Below, one piece after another: positions 4,085-47,591 of a stretch of 57,250 bases of DNA. Numbering within the stretch: position 1 is the stretch's first letter; each line of letters begins with the position of its first letter. Below the pieces are notes generated by a model. The model was not told the DNA's origin and made no database searches. It saw nothing but the letters and a program-made list of their open reading frames with translations. Position numbers and translations under genes: made by a program. The stretch is from Bifidobacterium breve (GTDB taxonomy: Bacteria > Acidobacteriota > Vicinamibacteria > Vicinamibacterales > CAVVIG01), in NCBI GenBank assembly GCA_943328785.2, contig CALQBJ020000001.1:1-57250 (forward strand). Reading direction: 5' to 3'.

Positions 4085-5295
4085 CAGAAGTCCAGTTTTC
4101 CGATAAGAGTCTGCATTAATTGCCGGTCAGCGGACCCTGCCGGCGAGTCCCAATATGTCCGCCGTACCAGCGCGAAGAAGCGTTCCTTGTCCAGATCCTC
4201 TTCGAGCATGTCGAAGCCTTCCGCCATCAGCGCGATCCCGTCGACACGAGCCGGAGCGCCCTTCAGGAAGGCGAGCATCAGCGGCGTATTGCGCAGCGCA
4301 ATCGTCGCGAGCGCGAGGGACATCGGCGCACGTGCCGGGTCCCGCGACGGAATGCCGGCCTCGAACAGCGCCTGCACAGCCGACTCGCGCCCGCTGATGG
4401 CGAGCGCGCCCAGACCGGATGCGGCACCACGCAGCAGTTCCTGAAAGCCGATGTTCTGGTCAGCGAAACGCAGGGTCTGGACGAGAAAGCGCTCGTGCGA
4501 ACCGCAGTTGGTGCCCAGCAGGCAGATGCCGGCGGCGACGAACGGCTGCGCCGTTCGCGGCGCGCTCCGTTGCAGGCTGGCCAGCGTCTCGAGCGCCCGC
4601 CGGTCGCCAATCTTGCCGAGCGCCAGCGCGGCATCGTCCAGGAGCGGGCCGTCGAGGCCGGCGATGGCGTTGATCGCGTCGAAGGCGTAGCGCGCATGGT
4701 AATCGCCGAGCGCCTCGATGACCGCTCCTCGGAAGAAGTCCTCACCCCGGCCAGACTCGCGCGTCAACACCGGCTGGACACTCGGGTCTGAGCCGTGCGC
4801 AGCCAGCGTTCGCACGAGGGCCGGCCGGACGAACTCCGCCTGCTCCCGGTCAAGCGCCGACAGAAAGAGCGGCACGAGCGACGGATCCGGGTTGTGCTCG
4901 AAGTAGCTGTAGGCGACCGTGCGGAGCCGGTCGTTCGGACTGGACAGCGATTCGCGCATCGCGTCACGGGTCCGCGGGTCGTTGAAGCCGGTCAGCAGCA
5001 CGAGGCCGCGGAAGCGAACGTAGCCGTCCGCGTGTTGCGCGACAGCGTTCAGCAGGGCCGGCACCGCCTGAGCCGGCGTGGTTCGCCGAATCAGCTTCGA
5101 AGCCTCGGTACGCGTCGCGTAGTCGAGCGAGCCGAGCCTGTCGATGGCCTCCTGCAGCCGGGGGGCAGCCACCGCCTGGGGAGCGGCCGGCTCCTGCGCA
5201 GACACCGGCGAAGCGCCGATGGCGAACGCAAGACAGACGAGCGCCAACCTCACCCATCCGCCGACGGACATCAGGCGCCCTGCCACTGGACCCAT
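4084..5295 (-). CDS. Secreted HEAT/ARM-like repeat protein
   Basis: Signal-peptide-like N-terminus ending 'AIGASPVSAQEP'. The rest is repetitive Ala/Leu/Arg-rich helical units resembling HEAT/PBS-lyase repeats, with no catalytic motif seen. Start could be the internal Met at 5271. Confidence 0.6.
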   Translation of the reverse strand: MGPVAGRLMSVGGWVRLALVCLAFAIGASPVSAQEPAAPQAVAAPRLQEAIDRLGSLDYATRTEASKLIRRTTPAQAVPALLNAVAQHADGYVRFRGLVLLTGFNDPRTRDAMRESLSSPNDRLRTVAYSYFEHNPDPSLVPLFLSALDREQAEFVRPALVRTLAAHGSDPSVQPVLTRESGRGEDFFRGAVIEALGDYHARYAFDAINAIAGLDGPLLDDAALALGKIGDRRALETLASLQRSAPRTAQPFVAAGICLLGTNCGSHERFLVQTLRFADQNIGFQELLRGAASGLGALAISGRESAVQALFEAGIPSRDPARAPMSLALATIALRNTPLMLAFLKGAPARVDGIALMAEGFDMLEEDLDKERFFALVRRTYWDSPAGSADRQLMQTLIGKLDF

Positions 5296-5296
5296 G

Positions 5297-6724
5297 TCAA
5301 TTCGTGACGGTCGCCTTGTCCAGCTTCAGTGCCAGCTGGAGGTAGCTGTGCTCATCGCGCGGGAACGCGATGGGATACTGCCCCGTGTAGCAGGAGCTGC
5401 AGTAGTGGTCGCTGCCTTCGCCGACCGCATGCATCAACCCGTCGAGGCTGAGATAGGCGACGCTGTCGCAGTCGAGGTAGGTGCGGATCTCTTCGAGCGT
5501 GTGCGTCGCCGCCATCAGTTCCGAGCGCCGCGGCGTGTCGACGCCGTAGAAGCACGGAGAAATAGTGGGAGGACAACTGATGCGCACGTGGACTTCCTTC
5601 GCACCGGCGGCTCGCACCATGCGCACGATCTTCCGGCTCGTGGTCCCGCGCACGAGCGAGTCGTCGACGAGGATGACGCGCTGGCCAGCGAGAATACTGC
5701 GAACCGGATTGAGCTTCACCTTCACGGCGAAATGGCGGATGGACGACTGCGGCTGGATGAAGGTGCGCCCGACGTAGTGATTCCGGATAAGCCCCATGCG
5801 GAGCGGGATGTTGGCTTCGTCGGCGAAGCCCATCGCCGCGCAGACCCCCGAGTCCGGAACGGGCACGACGACGTCGGCATCGACGCGCTGCTCACGTGCC
5901 AGAACACGACCGAGGTTCGTCCGCACCTCGTTGACGCTCTTGCCGAAGACGTAGCTGTCGGGGCGCGAGAAATAGACGTGCTCGAAGACGCAGTGTGCGA
6001 GCGGCGCCGGGCCGAACGGCTTCAGCGACTTCACGCCGCCGGCGCTGATGATCAGTAGCTCGCCTGGCTCCACATCGCGCACGTAGGTCGCACCGATCAG
6101 ATCGAGGGCGCAGGTCTCCGAGCAGACGACAAAGGCCTCGCCCAGTCGACCGAGCGCCAGCGGCCGGAACCCGTGGGGATCGCGCACCGCGATCATCCGG
6201 TCGGAGGTCAGCATCAGGAACGAGAAGGCGCCCTGCAACTGCGTCACCGAATCGATGACAGCATCTTCGACGCTCTTCCCCTTGGAGCGGGCATAGAGAT
6301 GCAGGACGACCTCGGTATCGCTGCCCGACTGGAAGATCGAACCCTGGCTGACCAGGTCGTTACGCAGCGAGTCGGCGTTGGTGAGGTTGCCGTTGTGGCA
6401 GATGCTGAACTGCCCGTGCGCACAGTCGATGAGGAATGGCTGGGCATTCGCCAGCCGGCTTTCTCCCGCCGTCGAGTAGCGGACGTGTCCGATGGCCGCA
6501 TGCCCAGGCAACTGCGACAGCGTCTGGCCGTCGAAGATATCGGCGACGTAGCCCATCTGCTTCGTCACACGCACGACGCCGCCATCGGAGACCGCGATGC
6601 CGGCGCTTTCCTGACCGCGGTGCTGCAGCGCGTACAGACCGAGATAGGTCATGTTCGCGGACTCGCGGTGTCCGAAGATCCCGAAGACGCCGCACTCATC
6701 CTTGAACTTATCCAGCATTGACAC
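5297..6724 (-). CDS. purF: Amidophosphoribosyltransferase
   Basis: Ntn-amidotransferase 'ECGVFGIFG', PRTase loop 'VILVDDSLVRGTT', and Cys clusters 'CPPTISPCFYG' and 'CSSCYTG'. Confidence 0.93.
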   Translation of the reverse strand: MSMLDKFKDECGVFGIFGHRESANMTYLGLYALQHRGQESAGIAVSDGGVVRVTKQMGYVADIFDGQTLSQLPGHAAIGHVRYSTAGESRLANAQPFLIDCAHGQFSICHNGNLTNADSLRNDLVSQGSIFQSGSDTEVVLHLYARSKGKSVEDAVIDSVTQLQGAFSFLMLTSDRMIAVRDPHGFRPLALGRLGEAFVVCSETCALDLIGATYVRDVEPGELLIISAGGVKSLKPFGPAPLAHCVFEHVYFSRPDSYVFGKSVNEVRTNLGRVLAREQRVDADVVVPVPDSGVCAAMGFADEANIPLRMGLIRNHYVGRTFIQPQSSIRHFAVKVKLNPVRSILAGQRVILVDDSLVRGTTSRKIVRMVRAAGAKEVHVRISCPPTISPCFYGVDTPRRSELMAATHTLEEIRTYLDCDSVAYLSLDGLMHAVGEGSDHYCSSCYTGQYPIAFPRDEHSYLQLALKLDKATVTN

Positions 6725-6798
6725 CTTTTCCGACGAAGCTGCGATTCCTGGCGTTGACCGGACAGCCCGGCCAACGCATGCGCTGCCGAGCGTTCGAC

Positions 6799-8139
<1,341 letters not shown>

Positions 8140-37939: not shown

Positions 37940-39664
37940 ATGAGGTCATACATTGTCTATGTGCTGGGGATCGTTGCGCTCGTCATTCTGACGAGCGCAA
38001 CCGGTTTCTACGCGGCCGAAATCGGCACCAACCAGAACCTCGACAGCTACGGCGACGCCCTCTGGTGGGCGATCGTCACTGTCACCACCGTCGGCTACGG
38101 CGACATCTTCCCTGTCACCGTTGCCGGCCGCCTGGTGGGCGCCTTGCTGATGTTCGCCGGCATCGGTGCGCTTGGCGTGTTCACCGCCTCCATCGCCGCC
38201 TACCTCATCAAGTTCGATCGCCTCGACGCCCTCCGGGTCAGGGGCATGCACGGCCACGTGGTGATCTGCGGCCTCGGCTCGACCGGTGCGCTGCTGGCCC
38301 AGGCGTTCCAGCGCGACGGCTACACGGTGCTGGCCATCGAGAAAGCCGAGGACAACTCACGCATCGGCGCAGCCCGCGAGGCGGGTGCCGTGGTGCTGAT
38401 AGGGGATGCCGCGCGGACCGAGGTATTGCGCCGGGCGCGGGTCGACCGTGCCGCGCACATCGTGATCGTCACCGGCGCCGATGCGACCAACGTGGAGATT
38501 GCCGCCGCCGCGCGAGCCCTGGTGCTCGACTCGACGGCCAGCGTGTCGTGCTCGGCGCAGATCGAAGACCCGGAACTCTGGTACGCCCTGCGTAGTTGGG
38601 ACGTCGGCACGCAGGACCGCGTACGGCTCGCGTTCTTCAATGTGGCCGAACTCGGCGCCCGCGCCCTGCTCGCCCGCTACTCCCCGTTCGCGGGAGGGAC
38701 CGACGCGCCCCGCACTCCGCCTCGCGTCCTCATCGTCGGTTCCGGTGCGCTCGCACAGCACCTGATCGGGCACATGGTGCGGCAGTGGCAGGACGTGGAC
38801 GGCGATGCCAAGCCGCCGTTGCCGATCGCCCTCGTCGATGCCGACGTCGACCGCGTTAGGGAGGATCTGTATCACCGGAACCCCGAACTGCGCACGCTCG
38901 CCGCGATCTCGGCGCATGCGATGGACCTGCGGTCGACGACCTTCCAGCGCGGTGCGTTCCTGTTCGACGATGCGGGCCACTGCGCGGTGACCCACGCTTA
39001 CGTCTGCGTCGACGAGGAAGGGCTGGCAATCTCCACCGCGCTGCTGCTGCTGAATCACCTGCGGCAGTACGGTGTGCACGTGATGGTGCGGACGAACCGC
39101 GCAGCGGGACTGGCAGCCCTACTGCGCGCCGTCGGCAATGAGGGGGCACGAGGGGCGTCGCACCTGCACGTCTTCAGCCTGCTCGAGCAGGCCTGCAGCC
39201 CGGAGTTCGTACTGCGCGGCACCAACGAGGTGCTGGCGCGAGCGCTGCACCAGGACTATCTGGCACAGGCGTCCAGAAGCCAGAGCCCATCGGCCGTTCC
39301 GTGGGATGAGTTGGCGCTCGATCTCAAGGAATCGAATCGACGGCAGGCGGACCACATCGCGACGAAGCTCGAAGTGGTGCACTGCCACATCGTGCCGCTC
39401 ACCGCGCTCGAAGGCGATGCGTTCACCTTTGCTCCGGCCGAGGTGGAGCAACTGGCCGAGATGGAGCACGAGCGCTGGGTGGCCGAACGCCGAGCGCAGG
39501 GCTGGAAGCGCGGACCTCGCGACCCGGCACTGAAGACCAATCCCAGCCTTGTTTCATGGGCCGACCTCGATGAATCGGCTCGCGACATCAACAGGAGTTC
39601 CGTGCGCCGACTGCCGTTCTTCCTGAATCGCGCGGGCTTCACCGCACACCGTTACAAAGCATGA
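37940..39664 (+). CDS. 2-TM K+ channel fused to two RCK/TrkA-N domains and a C-terminal RyR domain
   Basis: Selectivity filter 'TVGYGD' (38087-38104) between two hydrophobic helices. Rossmann motifs 'VVICGLGSTG' and 'VLIVGSGALA'. RyR-like 'LAEMEHERWVAERRAQGWKRGPRDPALKTNPSLVSWADLDESARDINRSSVRRLPFFL'. Confidence 0.85.
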   Translation: MRSYIVYVLGIVALVILTSATGFYAAEIGTNQNLDSYGDALWWAIVTVTTVGYGDIFPVTVAGRLVGALLMFAGIGALGVFTASIAAYLIKFDRLDALRVRGMHGHVVICGLGSTGALLAQAFQRDGYTVLAIEKAEDNSRIGAAREAGAVVLIGDAARTEVLRRARVDRAAHIVIVTGADATNVEIAAAARALVLDSTASVSCSAQIEDPELWYALRSWDVGTQDRVRLAFFNVAELGARALLARYSPFAGGTDAPRTPPRVLIVGSGALAQHLIGHMVRQWQDVDGDAKPPLPIALVDADVDRVREDLYHRNPELRTLAAISAHAMDLRSTTFQRGAFLFDDAGHCAVTHAYVCVDEEGLAISTALLLLNHLRQYGVHVMVRTNRAAGLAALLRAVGNEGARGASHLHVFSLLEQACSPEFVLRGTNEVLARALHQDYLAQASRSQSPSAVPWDELALDLKESNRRQADHIATKLEVVHCHIVPLTALEGDAFTFAPAEVEQLAEMEHERWVAERRAQGWKRGPRDPALKTNPSLVSWADLDESARDINRSSVRRLPFFLNRAGFTAHRYKA

Positions 39665-41559
39665 ACAGCGAACATTCGTCGTCGCCACACACCGCGCACG
39701 GCCACCGGCGTCCCAAGCGAGTCCGGCACCCAGGCACCGGCCAGATGCCTGGGCCGCTACCGCTGATCGTCGGCGTCACCGGCCATCGTGATCTGCGCCC
39801 CGAGGACACGCACGCGCTCGAAGGACTGGTGCGACGCCTCATCGAAGACGTGAAGCACGCGCATCCGCACACGCCGCTGCTGCTGCTGTCGCCACTCGCG
39901 GAAGGCAGCGACCGCCTGGTCGCGCGCGTCGCCCTCGAACTCGGTGTCCGCCTCGTGGTGCCACTGCCATTGCCGCTCGACCTTTACGAGCAGGACTTCG
40001 CCAGCGAGGCGTCGCTGGCCGAGTTCCGCCGCCTGCTCGGCCGCGCGGAAAGTTCGTACGTGCTGCCGCTGATGCGCGGCAACACCGACCAGGGAATCAG
40101 GCAGTACGGCGATCAGCGGAACCGTCAGTACGCCCAGGTCGGTGCGCTCATCGCCCGGCAGAGCCAGGTGTTCCTCGCCCTCTGGGACGGCGCGAGCGAT
40201 GCGGGCCACGACAAGGTGGGCGGCACGGCGGAAGTGGTCCGGTTCAGGCTCGAGGGCGTGCCCCCGAGCTACGAGCCGACGTCGGCCAGCCCGCTCAGCT
40301 ATTCCAGCAGCGGACGGGTGTATCACCTCGTGACGCCGCGCATCGGCCAGCCGGTGCCGCCGAAGGCGCTGGCGTCGGAGCTGCTCCTGCCCACCCGTCA
40401 GACCGCGGCGTCGTTCGATGAACGCGAGGGGTGGATGGACCGGTTCAACGAGGACGCGCTGCACTTCGACGCGCAGTTGGCACCGGCTCGCGTCACCAGC
40501 ACGTCGTACCTGCTGAACGTCAAGGAGCACGAGGTCGATGCGGCGGCGCGCTCGCTGCCCGCCTCGGCGCAGATGACCATGGAGCGCTACGCCGTCGCGG
40601 ACACCCTGGCGCTGCACTTCGCCACCTACACCAGGGCGGCGTCGCGGAAGCTGTTCCTGTGGGTGTTCGTGTCGGCGCTGTTCTTCAACCTGTTCCACTC
40701 GCTGCCGCACCCGCATATCTCAGAACATCCTTCGCTCGGTGAACGGCTGATCGCGGTTCCATGGCTCCTCCTGCTCTTCCTCGCCTCGTCCATCGTCGCC
40801 AGCTACTGGATCCATCGCGAGGCGACCGAGCAGGACTACCAGAACAAGCACCAGGATTACCGGGCGCTGGCCGAGGCGCTGCGCATCCAGTTCTTCTGGC
40901 AGGTGGCCGGCGTGCAGGGCGACGTCGCGGATCACTACCTGCGCAAGCAGCGCGGGGCGCTGGAGTGGATTCGCAACGCGCTCCGGGCCTGGGATACCGA
41001 GTCGTCGGCCAACGAGGCGCACGAAGCGGTGGAGGGCCTCCTGCCAGAGCGGCTGGACTACGTCGCCCGGAACTGGGTCTTCGAGCAGCGCAACTACTTC
41101 GCGTCGAAGGCGCGCCGTGAGCAGGCGACGCTCGAGGACGAAGAGAAGAAGATCGAGTGGCTGGTGCGGATCAGCGTGGCGATGGCGATGCTGCTCGCCG
41201 TGGTGCTGACGGTGCCACTCCTCGTGCCCATTCACGCACTCGAAGCGGTGAAGCACTGGGTCGAGGAACCGCTGACGCACGGGATCATCATGGTCGTTAT
41301 CGTGACCCTGGCGGTCGTCGCCGGCCTGCGTCACGGCTACAACCAGCAGATGGCCCACTCAGAGCATGCGAAACAGTTCGGGCGCATGAGCGAGCTGTTC
41401 GACGCGGCGCAGACGCACCTGTCGGCGCAACTGGACGCCGGGAAGCTCGAGGATGGGGCGGCGCTGCTACGCGAACTGGGTCAGGAAGCGCTGGAGGAGA
41501 ACGGCGACTGGGTACTGCTGCACCGCGAGCGTCCGCTCGAAGTGCCGCACTCGGGATGA
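39661..41559 (+). CDS. SLOG/LOG-like Rossmannoid N-domain fused to a 4-TM (SLATT-like) membrane region
   Basis: ATGA overlap with the channel stop. 'LIVGVTGHRD', 'SPLAEGSDRLVA' and 'LWDG...KVGGTAEVV' (compare LOG PGGxGTxxE). Four hydrophobic helices (LFLWVFVSALFF, LIAVPWLLLLFLASSIV, WLVRISVAMAMLLAVVLTV, GIIMVVIVTLAVVAGL). The domain call is inference. Confidence 0.6.
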   Translation: MNSEHSSSPHTAHGHRRPKRVRHPGTGQMPGPLPLIVGVTGHRDLRPEDTHALEGLVRRLIEDVKHAHPHTPLLLLSPLAEGSDRLVARVALELGVRLVVPLPLPLDLYEQDFASEASLAEFRRLLGRAESSYVLPLMRGNTDQGIRQYGDQRNRQYAQVGALIARQSQVFLALWDGASDAGHDKVGGTAEVVRFRLEGVPPSYEPTSASPLSYSSSGRVYHLVTPRIGQPVPPKALASELLLPTRQTAASFDEREGWMDRFNEDALHFDAQLAPARVTSTSYLLNVKEHEVDAAARSLPASAQMTMERYAVADTLALHFATYTRAASRKLFLWVFVSALFFNLFHSLPHPHISEHPSLGERLIAVPWLLLLFLASSIVASYWIHREATEQDYQNKHQDYRALAEALRIQFFWQVAGVQGDVADHYLRKQRGALEWIRNALRAWDTESSANEAHEAVEGLLPERLDYVARNWVFEQRNYFASKARREQATLEDEEKKIEWLVRISVAMAMLLAVVLTVPLLVPIHALEAVKHWVEEPLTHGIIMVVIVTLAVVAGLRHGYNQQMAHSEHAKQFGRMSELFDAAQTHLSAQLDAGKLEDGAALLRELGQEALEENGDWVLLHRERPLEVPHSG

Positions 41560-41592: not shown

Positions 41593-42987
41593 CTAGGCCA
41601 ACGGGGTCTGCGCCGCGGCCAGCCACGCCGCCGTCACTTCCGACGCCGTGGCAAACCGGCTGTTCGCGTCGGCCAGGATGCAGCGCATGATCATCGCCGC
41701 CGCCTCGGTCCCGAGGTCGGGACGCTCCGTCGCCACGTCCGGCGGCTTGGTCATGAGCATGCGGCCAAGCAGTTGCGGGAACGACTCCGCCGGGTAGGGC
41801 GGCCGTCCCGTGGCCATGTAGTACATCAGTGCACCGATCGTGAAGACGTCGGCACGCTGGTCGGCCGGATTCCCCATCAGCAGTTCCGGCGCAACGTACG
41901 ACAACTCGTGCGGCGCCGCCTGCCCCCGCAAGGTCGCCTCGTTCATTGTCGACAGCAGATCCTGCATGCCTCCGATGCCGGCGCTCGAGATGGCGAGGTG
42001 CTCTTTCTTGCCCGGCTCCCGCACCACACGAATGATTTCCGGATGCAGCCCCGAGATGAAGCCGCCGTGCACGTGCACCGCCTCGGTCGCCTCGCTCAGT
42101 TCGCGCACGAACTGCGTCAGCTTCGGGATGGCGAGGCCGCCGTCCAGGCGAACGAGTTCGCCGAGGCTCACGCCTGCCAGCAGGTCCGTCACCACGTACA
42201 TCATGTCCGTCGTCTCGCCGAAATCGCGGACGTGGATGATGTTCGGGTGCATCACCTGCAGGGCGCGCGCCTCACGCAGGAACCTGGCACGAATGGCCTC
42301 CTTGTTGTCCTTGTCGGTCGGCCGGTAGACGCGCACCGCGACCGGACTGCCGAGCATTCGGTGTTCGCCGGCATAGACGACGCTGCCGAAGCGACCGATC
42401 GCGACCACCTTCGTGAGGTCGTAGTTGCCCACCACCAGCGGCGATTCCTTGGACGGTTCGAGCGAGGCCGGCGGAGGCGGCGGCGCGGCGGCCGCGGCTG
42501 GCGAGGGAGCGAGGGGCGCTGGCGCGTCGACGCCGTCTGGGATCAGGTCGCCCTCGATGCCCGGCCGCTTCAGGTGCGCGTTGACGCCCTGGACGAGACG
42601 CTCGAGGTGCTGGTCGATCGGCTGGAGCGTCGCGTCGAACCAGTGCTGCGAGCTGATGAAGTACTCCATCGTCCGGGTCGGCATCACGTTCTCGATGCGG
42701 ACGGGCATGAGCGACAGCCCCTTGTGGACGGCGCGCTCGACCTCGCGCTGCACCTGGACCGACTTGTTGGAGGCTTCGCTGAAGACCAGCAGCATGACGC
42801 GCGAGCCTTCGATGGCGTCGATGATCGACTCGGCCCACGGCACGCCAGGCACGATGTCGCGGGGGGCGATCCAGCACGGAATGCCGCGCTGCTCGAGACC
42901 CGCGCAGATCGCGTTCGAGACAACCGCGTCTTTCGACGCATAACTGATGAAGACCACGTGCGCCATGACGAAAGCGCTGTCGATCAT
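41593..42987 (-). CDS. TIR domain - pseudokinase fusion protein
   Basis: TIR: 'VVFISYASKD...PCWIAPRDIVPG..WAESIIDAIEGSRVMLLVFSEASNKSVQVQREVE'. Kinase-like fold with degenerate motifs: 'VAVRVY' (K to R), 'ISGLHPEII' in place of HRDLKPEN, 'ISSAG' in place of DFG, with 'YVAPE' retained. Confidence 0.8.
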   Translation of the reverse strand: MIDSAFVMAHVVFISYASKDAVVSNAICAGLEQRGIPCWIAPRDIVPGVPWAESIIDAIEGSRVMLLVFSEASNKSVQVQREVERAVHKGLSLMPVRIENVMPTRTMEYFISSQHWFDATLQPIDQHLERLVQGVNAHLKRPGIEGDLIPDGVDAPAPLAPSPAAAAAPPPPPASLEPSKESPLVVGNYDLTKVVAIGRFGSVVYAGEHRMLGSPVAVRVYRPTDKDNKEAIRARFLREARALQVMHPNIIHVRDFGETTDMMYVVTDLLAGVSLGELVRLDGGLAIPKLTQFVRELSEATEAVHVHGGFISGLHPEIIRVVREPGKKEHLAISSAGIGGMQDLLSTMNEATLRGQAAPHELSYVAPELLMGNPADQRADVFTIGALMYYMATGRPPYPAESFPQLLGRMLMTKPPDVATERPDLGTEAAAMIMRCILADANSRFATASEVTAAWLAAAQTPLA

Positions 42988-42994
42988 AGCGCAT

Positions 42995-43035
42995 CGAAAA
43001 CAAAAAAAGGCCGCCGGGGTAAACCCGGCGGCCTT
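42995..43035 (-). terminator. Rho-independent terminator of the glgX/AGE transcript
   Basis: Minus strand reads AAGGCCGCCGGG-TTTAC-CCCGGCGGCCTT followed by TTTTTGTTTTC. 12-bp stem, 31 nt after the stop at 43066. Confidence 0.7.
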
Positions 43036-43065
43036 CTCTCGGTCCTGCGTGCTGCGGGACGGCTG

Positions 43066-45291
43066 TTAGTCGACGAAAGTGAGACTTTCGCCGAATTCGG
43101 TCGCGTTCAGGGCGTCCTTGACCGCCTGGTTCGCTCCGATTACCTGAACGTCCTCATCGGTTCGCAGCTTCTGCTTGCCGAAGATGAGGGCGCGAATCGC
43201 ACCCGGGGTCAGCGTCTTCAGTTCCTTGACGCGGATGATGAGCGTCTCGGGCTGGGCGGCGATGACCTCCTGAAGCTTGGCCTGCAGCGCCTGAACCGCC
43301 ATGTGGTCGGCGTCGCCCGCCAGGGTCAGCGTCGCGACCCCCTTGTCCACTGTGGCGTGTGCGCTGAAGTGTGACAGCCCCTCGGTCGGCGCGATACGCA
43401 CGACGATCTTCACCTGGTCATCAGCCTGCGGGATGGTGACCGTGAGGTTCGCGGCGTCGAAGTCGCTGTATTCCTTGCCGTCGACCGTGACCGACTCGAT
43501 CTTGATGCTGCCCTTCGGCAGCATGTCCGGCGCGACGCGCAGGATGTTGCCCTTGAACGCGCCCGGCTTCGGCTTGAAGTGCAGATCGAGCGGCTGCTTG
43601 GTGATGAGCAGGTTCGTGTAGACCGCCGCGAGGTAGCACAGCTCGAACGAGTGGTAGCCGCTCATCGAGTGGCTGCCCTTGTTGCGTTCGGTGCCGAGCA
43701 GGAACGGCATGCCGTTGGCGAGGACGTTGAAGTAGACGGCCCCCGAATCGTGGTCGAGGAAGAACGCGCTGTAGAACGCCGACGACTCACGCGCCTGCTT
43801 CAGGTACTCCGGCTTCTTCAGCGAACCGTGGAGGATCAGGTACGCCAGGATGCCCTGTTCCTGCTGCCACCACGCCTTGCGGTCGTGGAAGGCGAAGCGG
43901 TGGATCGACTGCCCTTCCGGCAGGGCGCGTTCCACCACGTCGTACCAGCCGCCACGCTGCGGGTCGCCGCCGTGCTTCGGCATGAGGCCGGCGATCTTCT
44001 CGGCGAGCGCCACGTAGCTGTCGTCCTGCTTCGCATTCACCATGCGCATCAGGTTCCAGGCGATCTTGAGGTTGTGTCCGACGACCCCGCGGTTCTGTTG
44101 CCAGCCCCACGTCCGGTCGGCGCTCCAATCCTCGTGGAACTTCTCCTGGACGAACGCGCTGTTCTCGTAGTCCGGGAAGCGCGTGGCGATGGTGGTCGCC
44201 GTGTCGATGAGCATCTCGAGGTGCTCGGGTTCGTTCGTCGCCAGCGCCAGGTTGATCAGGTACGCCGGGGCGTGGTCACCGACCGAATTCCAGTTCTTCT
44301 TCCCGCGGTTGCGACCGAGCGACTCGGCCTTCGGGTCGAAGGTGACCGGGTCAATGTGCGAGAAGTAGCCGCCACCCTCGTAGTCGCGGTAGTAGCGGTT
44401 GAACATGTTCAGGGTGCGGTCGATGTCCTTGCGGATCTTCGGGTCGCCCGTGATGCGGTAGGTCTGCGTCGGGCCGGCCAGCGCGTAGATCTGTTCATAC
44501 GCCGGGATCGCATCCCAGTCGTCACCGAACTCCGACGAGAGCAGCTTGCGCTCGCGGACGGGGGCGCTGGAGGAGCGGCGCATGCCGGGCACGTCGGCCA
44601 TGTCCGAGTTCAGGATCTTCTTGCCCTTCGCCTCGGCGAAGTCGATGGCGTGGTACCAGTAGCAGGTGTCCTCGACCGTGTCGACCGAGCAGAAGTGTTC
44701 GCGCAGGTAGTCGCTGCCCTTTTCGGCCGATTCGAGGAAGCGCTCGTCACCGGTGAGGAGGTAGGCCGAGGCGAAGCCGAAGATCAGGCGCGAGATCGTG
44801 TCGGTCTCCTGGCGGGTCGAATCGATCTTGCGGCCGTACAGGTCGAGCGACGTGCGGTAGTTGCGGTAGTCGACCGGGCCGTCGCCGAACTGGGCGCGGA
44901 AGTAGAAATTGCCCAGTTCCTGAATCTGGCGCACCCAATAGTCGGGCCGTTCGAACACGAACTCCGTCGGGCCGCGGCCGACGAACACGAGGTGCTCCGC
45001 CTCGAGCGCCATCGGCACGTCCGGGTAGAACACGCCGTAGGAGTACAGAAAGCGGCCGACCTGCAGCATGTCGCGCATCTGCCCGGTGCAGTCGATGTAC
45101 GACTCGCCGAGATTGCGCGCCAACTCGCCGTAGCATGAGCCCGAGAAGCGAATCTGGAATTCCCGGCCATCCGACGTGGCGACGCGGAATCCGTTACGGT
45201 CGGCGTCGACGCCGGTGACGTATCCGGCCACGGTGTCCGAGAATGCGAAGCCTAGTCCTGTCGTATTCGAAACCGAGTTCTTGACGTCCAT
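43066..45291 (-). CDS. AGE-superfamily (alpha/alpha)6 epimerase/isomerase-like enzyme with C-terminal STAS domain
   Basis: 'GHNLKIAWNL' and 'WWQQEQGILAYL' are AGE-like. The last ~110 aa ('ATLTLAGDADHMAVQALQAKL...LIIRVKELKTLTPGAIRALIF...VQVIGANQAVKDAL') are STAS-like. Confidence 0.72.
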   Translation of the reverse strand: MDVKNSVSNTTGLGFAFSDTVAGYVTGVDADRNGFRVATSDGREFQIRFSGSCYGELARNLGESYIDCTGQMRDMLQVGRFLYSYGVFYPDVPMALEAEHLVFVGRGPTEFVFERPDYWVRQIQELGNFYFRAQFGDGPVDYRNYRTSLDLYGRKIDSTRQETDTISRLIFGFASAYLLTGDERFLESAEKGSDYLREHFCSVDTVEDTCYWYHAIDFAEAKGKKILNSDMADVPGMRRSSSAPVRERKLLSSEFGDDWDAIPAYEQIYALAGPTQTYRITGDPKIRKDIDRTLNMFNRYYRDYEGGGYFSHIDPVTFDPKAESLGRNRGKKNWNSVGDHAPAYLINLALATNEPEHLEMLIDTATTIATRFPDYENSAFVQEKFHEDWSADRTWGWQQNRGVVGHNLKIAWNLMRMVNAKQDDSYVALAEKIAGLMPKHGGDPQRGGWYDVVERALPEGQSIHRFAFHDRKAWWQQEQGILAYLILHGSLKKPEYLKQARESSAFYSAFFLDHDSGAVYFNVLANGMPFLLGTERNKGSHSMSGYHSFELCYLAAVYTNLLITKQPLDLHFKPKPGAFKGNILRVAPDMLPKGSIKIESVTVDGKEYSDFDAANLTVTIPQADDQVKIVVRIAPTEGLSHFSAHATVDKGVATLTLAGDADHMAVQALQAKLQEVIAAQPETLIIRVKELKTLTPGAIRALIFGKQKLRTDEDVQVIGANQAVKDALNATEFGESLTFVD

Positions 45292-45330: not shown

Positions 45331-47483
<2,153 letters not shown>

Positions 47484-47484
<1 letters not shown>

Positions 47485-47555
47485 CACTCGGGGTCTCCTA
47501 CTGTCACAGGCCTTCCAGATTCGCAGTTCTGCACGTGAAGCGTGCGTTGCGTCAT
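47484..47555 (-). CDS. Candidate 23-codon upstream ORF (MTQRTLHVQNCESGRPVTVGDPE) coupled to glgX
   Basis: ATG at 47555 with AAGGAGG 6 nt upstream. The stop TGA overlaps the glgX ATG (TGATG). Seen only by reading the sequence; there is no homology evidence. Confidence 0.3.
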
Positions 47556-47591
47556 CCAACGCCTCCTTGTGCGGAATCCCGAAGACTTTTT

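Follow-up and report, generated by a model that had tools for sequence, protein, structure and literature searches.

A putative SLOG and four-helix membrane protein family associated with TIR and RyR genes: predicted sensor-effectors of Thoeris-like nucleotide signalling

Introduction

Signals derived from ADP-ribose (ADPR) by TIR domains constitute an immune language common to bacteria, plants and animals. The majority of predicted Thoeris effector types are, to our knowledge, uncharacterised. The present study concerns one gene within a 57,250-nucleotide stretch of DNA (positions 1 to 57,250 of the forward strand of contig CALQBJ020000001.1, assembly GCA_943328785.2), hereafter referred to as the window; its predicted product joins a SLOG domain to four transmembrane (TM) helices, and it lies between genes for a K+ channel with RyR repeats and for a TIR-pseudokinase protein.

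A preprint of December 2025 (10.64898/2025.12.03.692087) has catalogued 29 putative Thoeris types. In type I the SLOG domain of ThsA senses 3'cADPR, an isomer of cyclic ADPR (cADPR), in type VII the SLATT effector ThsH is activated by canonical cADPR, and type X relies on an ion-channel effector (10.64898/2025.12.03.692087). The same catalogue lists in its Tables S1-S2 and Fig. 1C an unvalidated class found beside TIRs, labelled '4TM SLOG' or 'SLOG and 4TM', whose effectors are IMG 2862473379 and 2691454910 (10.64898/2025.12.03.692087). SLOG and SLATT go back, as related in the papers that cite it, to Burroughs et al. 2015, and papers of the Aravind group predict that SLATT is a membrane effector regulated by ADPR derivatives and that the YpsA-clade SLOG is a cADPR sensor. 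In addition, phage proteins with the RyR domain (PF02026) have been reported to bind or hydrolyse 2'cADPR/3'cADPR and to resemble the R12 repeats of animal RyR (PMC13232231, a preprint of May 2026).

Systems that combine a TIR, a SLOG domain and a SLATT-type membrane effector are, as a kind, already known or predicted; the family described here has no curated model. On the grounds of its modelled fold, its motifs and its gene neighbours we predict, with moderate confidence, that the product of the gene under study is the sensor-effector in a Thoeris-like module of TIR-dependent nucleotide signalling.

Results

The SLOG and four-TM protein

The gene and the parts of its product are located in the window as follows:

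39661..41559, plus strand: gene for a SLOG and 4-TM inner-membrane protein of 632 aa (open reading frame (ORF) and translation, GC of 0.875 at third codon positions, more than 1400 homologs, AlphaFold2 (AF2) model)
39760..40395, plus strand: cytoplasmic Rossmannoid SLOG domain of the YpsA/YspA clade, predicted ligand sensor, aa 34-245 (model, Foldseek, profiles, motifs)
40396..40560, plus strand: helical linker, aa 246-300 (three helices in the model, moderate conservation)
40561..40956, plus strand: TM unit 1, SLATT/DUF4231-type, aa 301-432 (DUF4231/SLATT_3 profiles, hydropathy, model, conservation)
41044..41445, plus strand: TM unit 2, SLATT-like in topology only, aa 462-595 (hydropathy, model)
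41446..41556, plus strand: strongly conserved cytoplasmic C-terminal helix and tail (EENGDWVLLHRERPLEVPH), aa 596-632 (conservation)
39661..39664, plus strand: ATGA start/stop overlap with the upstream channel gene (...GCATGAAC...), read directly in the sequence

A preliminary description of this DNA, made from its letters, had proposed a SLOG/LOG-like domain fused to a four-helix membrane region here; the plus-strand gene of 632 codons exists, with four hydrophobic helices and all the motifs that had been quoted. At least 1421 proteins, among the candidates scored, are homologous to its product at E<=1e-3, nearly all of them labelled 'hypothetical', and with more than 1400 members at this threshold the family is real, far beyond chance. 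The GC contents of the three codon positions (0.72/0.43/0.875) are like those of the neighbouring genes, and on codon statistics and homologs we dropped the reading of the gene as a chance ORF; a 319-codon ORF on the opposite strand within it, whose codon-position GC is the mirror image of this pattern, is spurious. The N-terminal tail (M-N/S-S/T-E/Q-H...) is kept in homologs of 70-75% identity, which supports the ATG start and, thereby, the ATGA overlap. This overlap supports translational coupling of the channel gene and its downstream neighbour, and not the stoichiometric co-expression that the preliminary description had drawn from it. Direct scans of Pfam, NCBIfam and PADLOC gave no usable match for the protein, the sole hit being to DUF3742 (E 0.21), which was dismissed, and a profile of the family alignment retrieved from PDB sequences nothing but a spurious coiled-coil match. 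The AF2 model was built from 107 homologs and reached a mean pLDDT of 91.2 and a pTM of 0.88; one homolog (P0059), frameshifted or mis-assembled and departing from the family in several blocks, was left out of the modelling alignment.

In the model, strands alternate with helices over aa 34-245 in the Rossmannoid manner that had been proposed from the strand-loop pattern and from Gly-rich and acidic/Gly loops, and the motifs stand where they were said to be: VGVTGHRD after strand 1, LAEGSD after strand 2 and WDG...GGTAEVV after strand 5, before a helix. Foldseek searches of the PDB returned B. subtilis YpsA (2nx2) as the best match (E 9.7e-5, TM-score 0.63 on the target), followed by ShosA, several DprA structures and, weakly (E 0.18), the LOG-like TM1055; in BFVD, small viral SLOG proteins matched at TM-scores of 0.79-0.81, together with 'YspA cpYpsA-related SLOG' and DUF2493 proteins. 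The domain thus falls by structure search inside the SLOG/YpsA/DprA/LOG assemblage, with its Rossmannoid fold of three alpha/beta layers and a parallel sheet. When 40 diverse relatives were scanned singly for Pfam families, YAcAr (PF10686, 'YspA, cpYpsA-related SLOG') appeared in 23 of them exactly over TGHR..EGxD, always sub-threshold, the best individual score noted being 20.2 bits against a gathering score of 28.2; the target itself had no match. Scores under the gathering threshold indicate a separate family inside the YpsA/YspA clade.

Throughout the family the TGHR, GxD (G82-x-D84), WDG and GGT motifs do not vary. Residues T40, G41, H42, R43, S77, G82, D84, W175, G177 and T189 show little or no variation in the 107 homologs, with T40, G41, H42, R43, G82 and D84 invariant in 40-107 homologs. 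G82-x-D84 corresponds to the GxD/E motif, the substrate-binding signature of the YpsA clade (PMC6459960). G187, G188 and T189 are conserved as well, and the Glu of the LOG catalytic signature PGGxGTxxE varies (GGTAEVV, GGTGDVV, GGTSRVV, GGTAQTV); the domain would therefore belong to the YpsA clade and not to LOG proper, and an assignment as a LOG-type enzyme was dropped. Of the initial label, SLOG/LOG-like, the first half is upheld by the matches to YpsA 2nx2, DprA, ShosA and YAcAr, and the second is given up with the Glu. Three independent lines, namely structure, sub-threshold profiles and motifs, place the N-terminal domain in the SLOG superfamily and the YpsA clade, a model-based assignment that we take to be largely right.

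Between the SLOG domain and the membrane, the linker has nearly invariant F262, N263 and D265. Hydropathy reveals four TM-like segments (about aa 327-347, 362-385, 497-521 and 537-562), which are modelled as long helices with pLDDT >90, and in each TM unit of the model a long pre-TM helix continues as the first TM helix, which a short loop joins to the second, with a cytoplasmic helix after it. Unit 1 consists of its pre-TM helix, TM1, a short His-rich outer loop, TM2 and the amphipathic helix DYQNKxQDYRALAEALRIQFFW; unit 2 of its pre-TM helix (NWVFEQRNYFASKARREQ), TM3, a short loop, TM4 and a post-TM helix. K+R counts of 0.5 and 0.9 for the two short loops compare with 1.6-4.4 for the flanking 15-residue stretches, a distribution which by the positive-inside rule points to an N-in/C-in topology with all soluble parts, the SLOG domain included, in the cytoplasm. 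Hydropathy, model and charge pattern thus agree on the two pairs of helices with amphipathic companions that had been described beforehand, the segments behaving as TM helices. Outside the SLOG domain, the amphipathic helix after TM2 (conservation 0.77) and the C-terminus are the most conserved segments, the C-terminal helix and tail having a mean conservation of 0.77 and invariant residues that include W617, H621, R622, R624 and P629.

In the same scan of 40 relatives, DUF4231, which belongs to the SLATT superfamily (PMC9812332), was found in 33 over the first TM pair (aa ~300-400), sub-threshold except in relative P0038, whose 26.3 bits exceed the gathering score of 24.7, and 9 relatives had SLATT_3 over the first pair, again sub-threshold; in the target protein itself any DUF4231/SLATT match stayed under the reporting threshold of the Pfam scan. 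This recurrent signature suggests that unit 1 is a SLATT/DUF4231-type hairpin. Unit 2 gave just three weak SLATT_1 matches in the 40 relatives (best E 0.034). When unit 1 (aa 296-432) and unit 2 (aa 462-600) were compared by hhalign, TM1 did align with TM3 and TM2 with TM4, at a score of 20.1 and a probability of 3.7%, against 26-28 for reversed profiles and 10-17 for column shuffles; with a score under the reversed controls there is no sign of duplication in the sequence, and unit 2 is SLATT-like in topology only. One SLATT protein of BFVD matches the model at a probability of 0.84, where the aligned unit could be either. Therefore, of the double SLATT envisaged in the preliminary description, the first pair holds and the doubling, not supported by sequence, is unproven.

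The outer loop between TM1 and TM2 (window 40702-40743, aa 348-361) is rich in His (FHSLPHPHISEHP, with a conserved HSLPH motif) and in homologs P0055, P0071 and P0075 a stretch of 60-90 further residues, with much His, Ala and Glu, lengthens it; the loop could be a metal-binding or pore-mouth feature.

TIR and RyR genes accompany the family across phyla

We scanned one genome per species (185,579 species genomes), found 179 relatives, and retrieved and analysed 80 loci. These belong to Acidobacteriota, Verrucomicrobiota, Armatimonadota/Abditibacteria, Eremiobacterota, Planctomycetota, Bacteroidota/Ignavibacteria, Firmicutes, Chloroflexota, Gemmatimonadota and Proteobacteria, the nearest (88-89% identity) being from Vicinamibacterales/Acidobacteriota. 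Iterated hidden Markov models (HMMs) built from the partner proteins of the window were run against all ORFs of the 80 loci. A TIR ORF lies at <=500 bp from the target homolog in 35 loci and at <=4 kb in 49 of the 80 (39 of the 56 with complete flanks); counted by distance, 52 TIR ORFs fall within 4 kb versus 1 in 472 kb of farther flank (binomial p about 3e-13). The link to a TIR protein that had been drawn from the window is thus strongly borne out, and the fusion of a SLATT-type region to SLOG goes together here with a neighbouring TIR gene, an association typical for SLATT.

The TIR_2 domain was confirmed by Pfam in 49 of 50 flanking TIR proteins, which are multidomain proteins carrying AAA_16/NB-ARC/STAND, AAA_35, TPR, WD40 or kinase-like modules. 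F13, S15, Y16 and E82 are nearly invariant among the 50, the Glu at the catalytic position (E82 in the window protein) being >=90% conserved. Position and orientation of the TIR partner vary between loci. For the 31 loci without a detected TIR we found no alternative signal synthase, the Pfam search of 103 neighbours giving RyR (7), the sole recurrent domain, and unrelated families.

RyR-domain ORFs occur at <=4 kb in 18 of the 80 loci. In 13 of these the RyR part belongs to a channel-RCK-tandem-RyR fusion, encoded immediately upstream and on the same strand with a gap of 0-112 nt in 13/13 cases; the 13 species (of 80) are from Acidobacteriota, Verrucomicrobiota, Abditibacteria and Armatimonadota. 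The other loci have mostly standalone RyR proteins of 94-132 aa.

Such standalone proteins were seen beside family members at L039:9890-10183 (+) and in loci L026, L031, L035, L041 and L083. The one from Pelotomaculum resembles the animal RyR repeats very strongly, with 74.7 bits for R12 repeat 1 of RyR3 and 112-113 bits for each repeat of the engineered chimera 6uhi. Two further loci are worth mentioning. In a Syntrophorhabdaceae metagenome-assembled genome, an 845-aa fusion of RelA_SpoT, LSDAT_prok (a TRPM-type SLOG) and RyR is encoded beside a family member (L074:9876-12413, +), and the same locus has a frameshifted ThsB-like TIR (L074:7093-7593, +) that is closely similar in sequence to the TIR of the ion-channel type X of the preprint (E 3e-21). 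In L008 the gene directly upstream of the homolog (4918-6876, +) combines TPR-S, MAP3K_TRAF_bd and a class III nucleotide cyclase, and the convergent downstream gene encodes a 1002-aa kinase-TIR protein; the cyclase-domain protein may be a second signal generator.

Partner genes and surroundings in the window

The partner genes and associated features of the window are these:

37940..39664, plus strand: gene for a 574-aa K+ channel-RCK-RyR protein (Pfam)
39227..39643, plus strand: tandem RyR (R12-like) repeats of the channel, aa ~430-568, predicted ligand-binding or hydrolysing module for the cADPR family (Pfam, phmmer)
41593..42987, minus strand: convergent TIR and pseudokinase gene, 464 aa, predicted signal synthase/sensor (Pfam TIR_2 1.1e-22, Pkinase 1.5e-20)
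42595..42963, minus strand: TIR domain, aa 9-131, with Glu82 at the catalytic position (TIR_2, conservation among flanking TIRs)
41608..42435, minus strand: kinase-like domain, aa 185-460, a pseudokinase (catalytic residues replaced)
43001..43041, minus strand: strong intrinsic terminator of the upstream minus-strand gene (18-bp stem, 11 GC pairs, T-run)

The channel protein carries, in this order, a pore (Ion_trans_2, aa 12-90, 3.3e-17), an RCK domain (TrkA_N, aa 107-199, 3.9e-18), a middle region and a C-terminal RyR part (3.6e-12; PF02026, 46.8 bits versus a gathering score of 27.4). The latter holds two repeats (aa 430-484 and aa 501-568), and its similarity to the R12 repeats of RyR1-3 reaches E of about 1e-13 in phmmer. 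The probable PDB entry (35tm) of phage RyDEP, a cADPR glycosidase with the catalytic dyad H75/D117, ranked low in the search with this RyR part (E 0.014), and tblastn of the module against the phage collection gave no match. By analogy with the phage proteins the fusion is a candidate cADPR-isomer-gated channel; an RyR/K+ channel partner of a SLOG-4TM family appears to be undescribed so far.

In the kinase-like domain of the TIR protein, VAVR stands for VAIK, ISGLHPEI for HRDxKxxN and SSAG for DFG, APE being kept. The same changes are found in the homolog at 60% identity, and since the catalytic Lys, the HRD/Asn loop and DFG are all replaced we regard the domain as a pseudokinase, presumably the sensor module of the TIR protein. 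The terminator at 43041-43001 (-), which precedes the TIR-pseudokinase gene, implies that this gene opens its own transcription unit.

The surroundings of the module are housekeeping genes: glgC, eno and gpmA upstream, and on the other side the gene for a 741-aa GlcNAc-2-epimerase-like protein with C-terminal STAS (43066-45291, -), adjoining the isoamylase gene glgX (45331-47559, -), so that the module is embedded among genes of carbohydrate metabolism. In relatives at 60-97% identity the epimerase-like and glgX genes keep their synteny with the module. At 60% identity (locus L005 of P0040, 5289-8830) this synteny and the pair of channel-RyR and SLOG-4TM genes are kept in the absence of the TIR-pseudokinase gene, indicating that the TIR partner is gained or lost independently of the pair.

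Similarity to catalogued Thoeris TIRs

An HMM of the flanking TIRs was compared with the TIRs of eight Thoeris types; those of the 'SLOG and 4TM' class came top with 49.7 and 46.4 bits, the rest scoring <=35. The Ca. N. nitrosa TIR directly matches the TIR near the family member of locus L054. Searches with this TIR gave matches of <=64% identity with an uninformative neighbour, and those with the Streptomyces TIR none. The family is likely, though unproven, to be the 'SLOG and 4TM' class of the preprint, an identification based on architecture and TIR similarity only.

Discussion

Our analysis supports directly an N-in/C-in membrane protein with a SLOG fold and its motifs, a SLATT-type first hairpin and recurrent gene associations. 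We consider it moderately probable, on profiles, model and comparative context taken together, that these properties belong to the sensor-effector announced above. In the mechanism that we propose, a multidomain TIR protein (TIR-pseudokinase in the window, TIR-STAND, TIR-TPR or TIR-WD40 elsewhere) would sense a trigger, e.g. phage infection, and make an ADPR-derived signal, probably a cADPR isomer, from NAD+. This signal would bind the cytoplasmic SLOG pocket, and binding could bring about a conformational change or an oligomerisation through the highly conserved amphipathic helices that follow the TM segments and through the C-terminal helix, whereupon the TM hairpins would breach or depolarise the membrane and cause growth stop or cell death. 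As a second effector, the tandem RyR module of the channel might bind the same signal and gate K+ flux; alternatively, RyR might hydrolyse or buffer the signal and thereby set a threshold. It is tempting to speculate on a two-receptor cADPR-type system in which a single TIR-made ligand acts at two places, opening a SLATT pore through SLOG and either gating the RyR repeats of the K+ channel or being cleared by them, a tentative proposal that we hold to be possible but doubtful.

Several observations weigh against a sensor-effector of immune signalling. TIRs fused to STAND/TPR modules can act as NADase effectors and not as signal makers. The neighbours of the module in the window are housekeeping genes and not a defence island, and the TIR gene is missing from the relative at 60% identity in the same synteny. 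In 25 of the 80 loci neither TIR nor RyR is found nearby, with no alternative synthase in their place, and our searches found no relatives on plasmids or viral contigs. The Thoeris models of PADLOC and NCBIfam, those of ThsA included, do not match the target. Finally, two 'SLOG and 4TM' systems, from Streptomyces sp. GKU 895 and Ca. Nitrospira nitrosa, conferred no defence in E. coli (10.64898/2025.12.03.692087).

The chief competing explanation is a second-messenger module with a physiological and not an immune role. SLOG and RyR would here respond to an NAD derivative from the TIR, or to NAD/ADPR itself, and thereby control K+ flux, membrane potential or the osmotic/energy state of soil bacteria, the 4-TM protein being a regulated channel or channel regulator and no suicide pore. 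Such a role would suit a module located between glycolysis and glycogen genes, in a synteny that is maintained at 60-97% identity, for which plasmid or viral copies were not found and in which translation of the target is coupled to that of a bona fide RCK-regulated K+ channel; the lack of defence in the E. coli tests of the preprint and the role of B. subtilis YpsA in cell physiology point in the same direction. It fits poorly with the patchy spread of the family (179 relatives in 185,579 species genomes, >10 phyla), with TIR partners that vary in position and orientation and also in architecture (STAND, NB-ARC, TPR, WD40, pseudokinase), as is typical for conflict systems, and with the nearest characterised analogues, which are all antiphage. 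We judge a non-immune role unlikely.

Less probable still, and in our opinion quite improbable, is a reversal of roles, with the TIR as NAD+-depleting effector and the SLOG protein as a membrane-anchored nucleotide-processing enzyme (an N-glycosidase, a signal generator or a degrader) or as a regulator of the TIR. The invariant polar residues H42, R43, D44, E81, D84, D176 and R227 could make an active site, SLOG clades do include enzymes such as LOG, signal processing has been predicted for some YpsA-like SLOGs (Aravind group, PMC9503650), and the catalogue of Thoeris types itself warns that some of its putative TIRs may be effectors (10.64898/2025.12.03.692087). On the other hand, the Glu of the LOG catalytic PGGxGTxxE is not conserved, the characterised SLOG of a conflict system (ThsA) is a ligand sensor, the fusion to a SLATT-type hairpin is the classic sensor-effector layout, and the co-occurring RyR domains already offer a candidate function for degrading or buffering. 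That the target is an unrelated Rossmann-like membrane protein with meaningless TIR/RyR adjacency, as the want of any curated profile match above threshold and the empty PDB sequence-profile search might suggest, is scarcely credible and effectively refuted by the PDB/BFVD structure searches and the distance dependence of the TIR enrichment (p about 3e-13), given also the independent agreement of structure, sub-threshold profiles and motifs and the presence in 18 of the 80 loci of RyR, a domain rare in bacteria.

If the prediction of a TIR-dependent sensor-effector is true, the family defines a SLOG-gated membrane effector common in poorly studied soil phyla, namely Acidobacteriota, Eremiobacterota, Armatimonadota, Planctomycetota and Verrucomicrobiota. 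Its TIR partners, with their pseudokinase or STAND/NB-ARC/TPR modules, resemble the NLR-TIR logic of eukaryotes. The coupling to RyR would tie the 2026 finding on the RyR fold and cADPR isomers to ion-channel gating, and bears on the debated relationship between cADPR and RyR. Should the two-receptor proposal also be true, the bacterial channel-RyR protein would be a prokaryotic antecedent of channel control through RyR Repeat12, and would provide a simple system to ask whether RyR-type domains sense cADPR-family molecules directly.

Comparison with known systems places the module among several of them. The closest is the 'SLOG and 4TM' class, which likewise has a SLOG domain, four TM helices and a gene beside a TIR; in the preprint this class is a label only, with no SLATT assignment, RyR/K+ channel partner, or pseudokinase or STAND fusions. 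Type I Thoeris shares with the predicted module a TIR enzyme and a SLOG effector, which in the case of ThsA senses a TIR-made cADPR isomer. However, the effector module of ThsA is SIR2 and that of the target a 4-TM membrane region, the SLOG domain of the target is nearer to YpsA/DprA than to ThsA (outside the top 50 PDB matches), and ThsB is a small TIR whereas the TIR partners described here are large multidomain proteins. ThsH and the SLATT effectors of CBASS and other systems resemble the target in the 2-TM SLATT-type hairpin and in the predicted membrane-disrupting output of a signal made by an adjacent TIR. ThsH lacks a SLOG domain and takes its ligand in pockets that lie between the protomers of SLATT (10.64898/2025.12.03.692087), whereas the target has a SLOG domain of its own as predicted sensor, one more TM hairpin and long cytoplasmic helices that are conserved. 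YpsA (2nx2), the top structural match, and YAcAr/DUF2493 (YspA), with its recurrent profile matches, share with the target the GxD/E signature; both are small soluble proteins, unlike the membrane-fused target. In SLOG-gated channels of the TRPM2 type a domain for an ADPR-family ligand is joined to a cation channel, as is predicted for the channel of the window, TRPM matches to the target model being of low probability. RyDEP and the animal RyR Repeat12 share the PF02026 RyR fold with this channel, in which it is tandem; in contrast to RyDEP, a phage protein, the RyR module of the window is host-encoded and is carried by a K+ channel-RCK protein in an operon with the SLOG-4TM gene.

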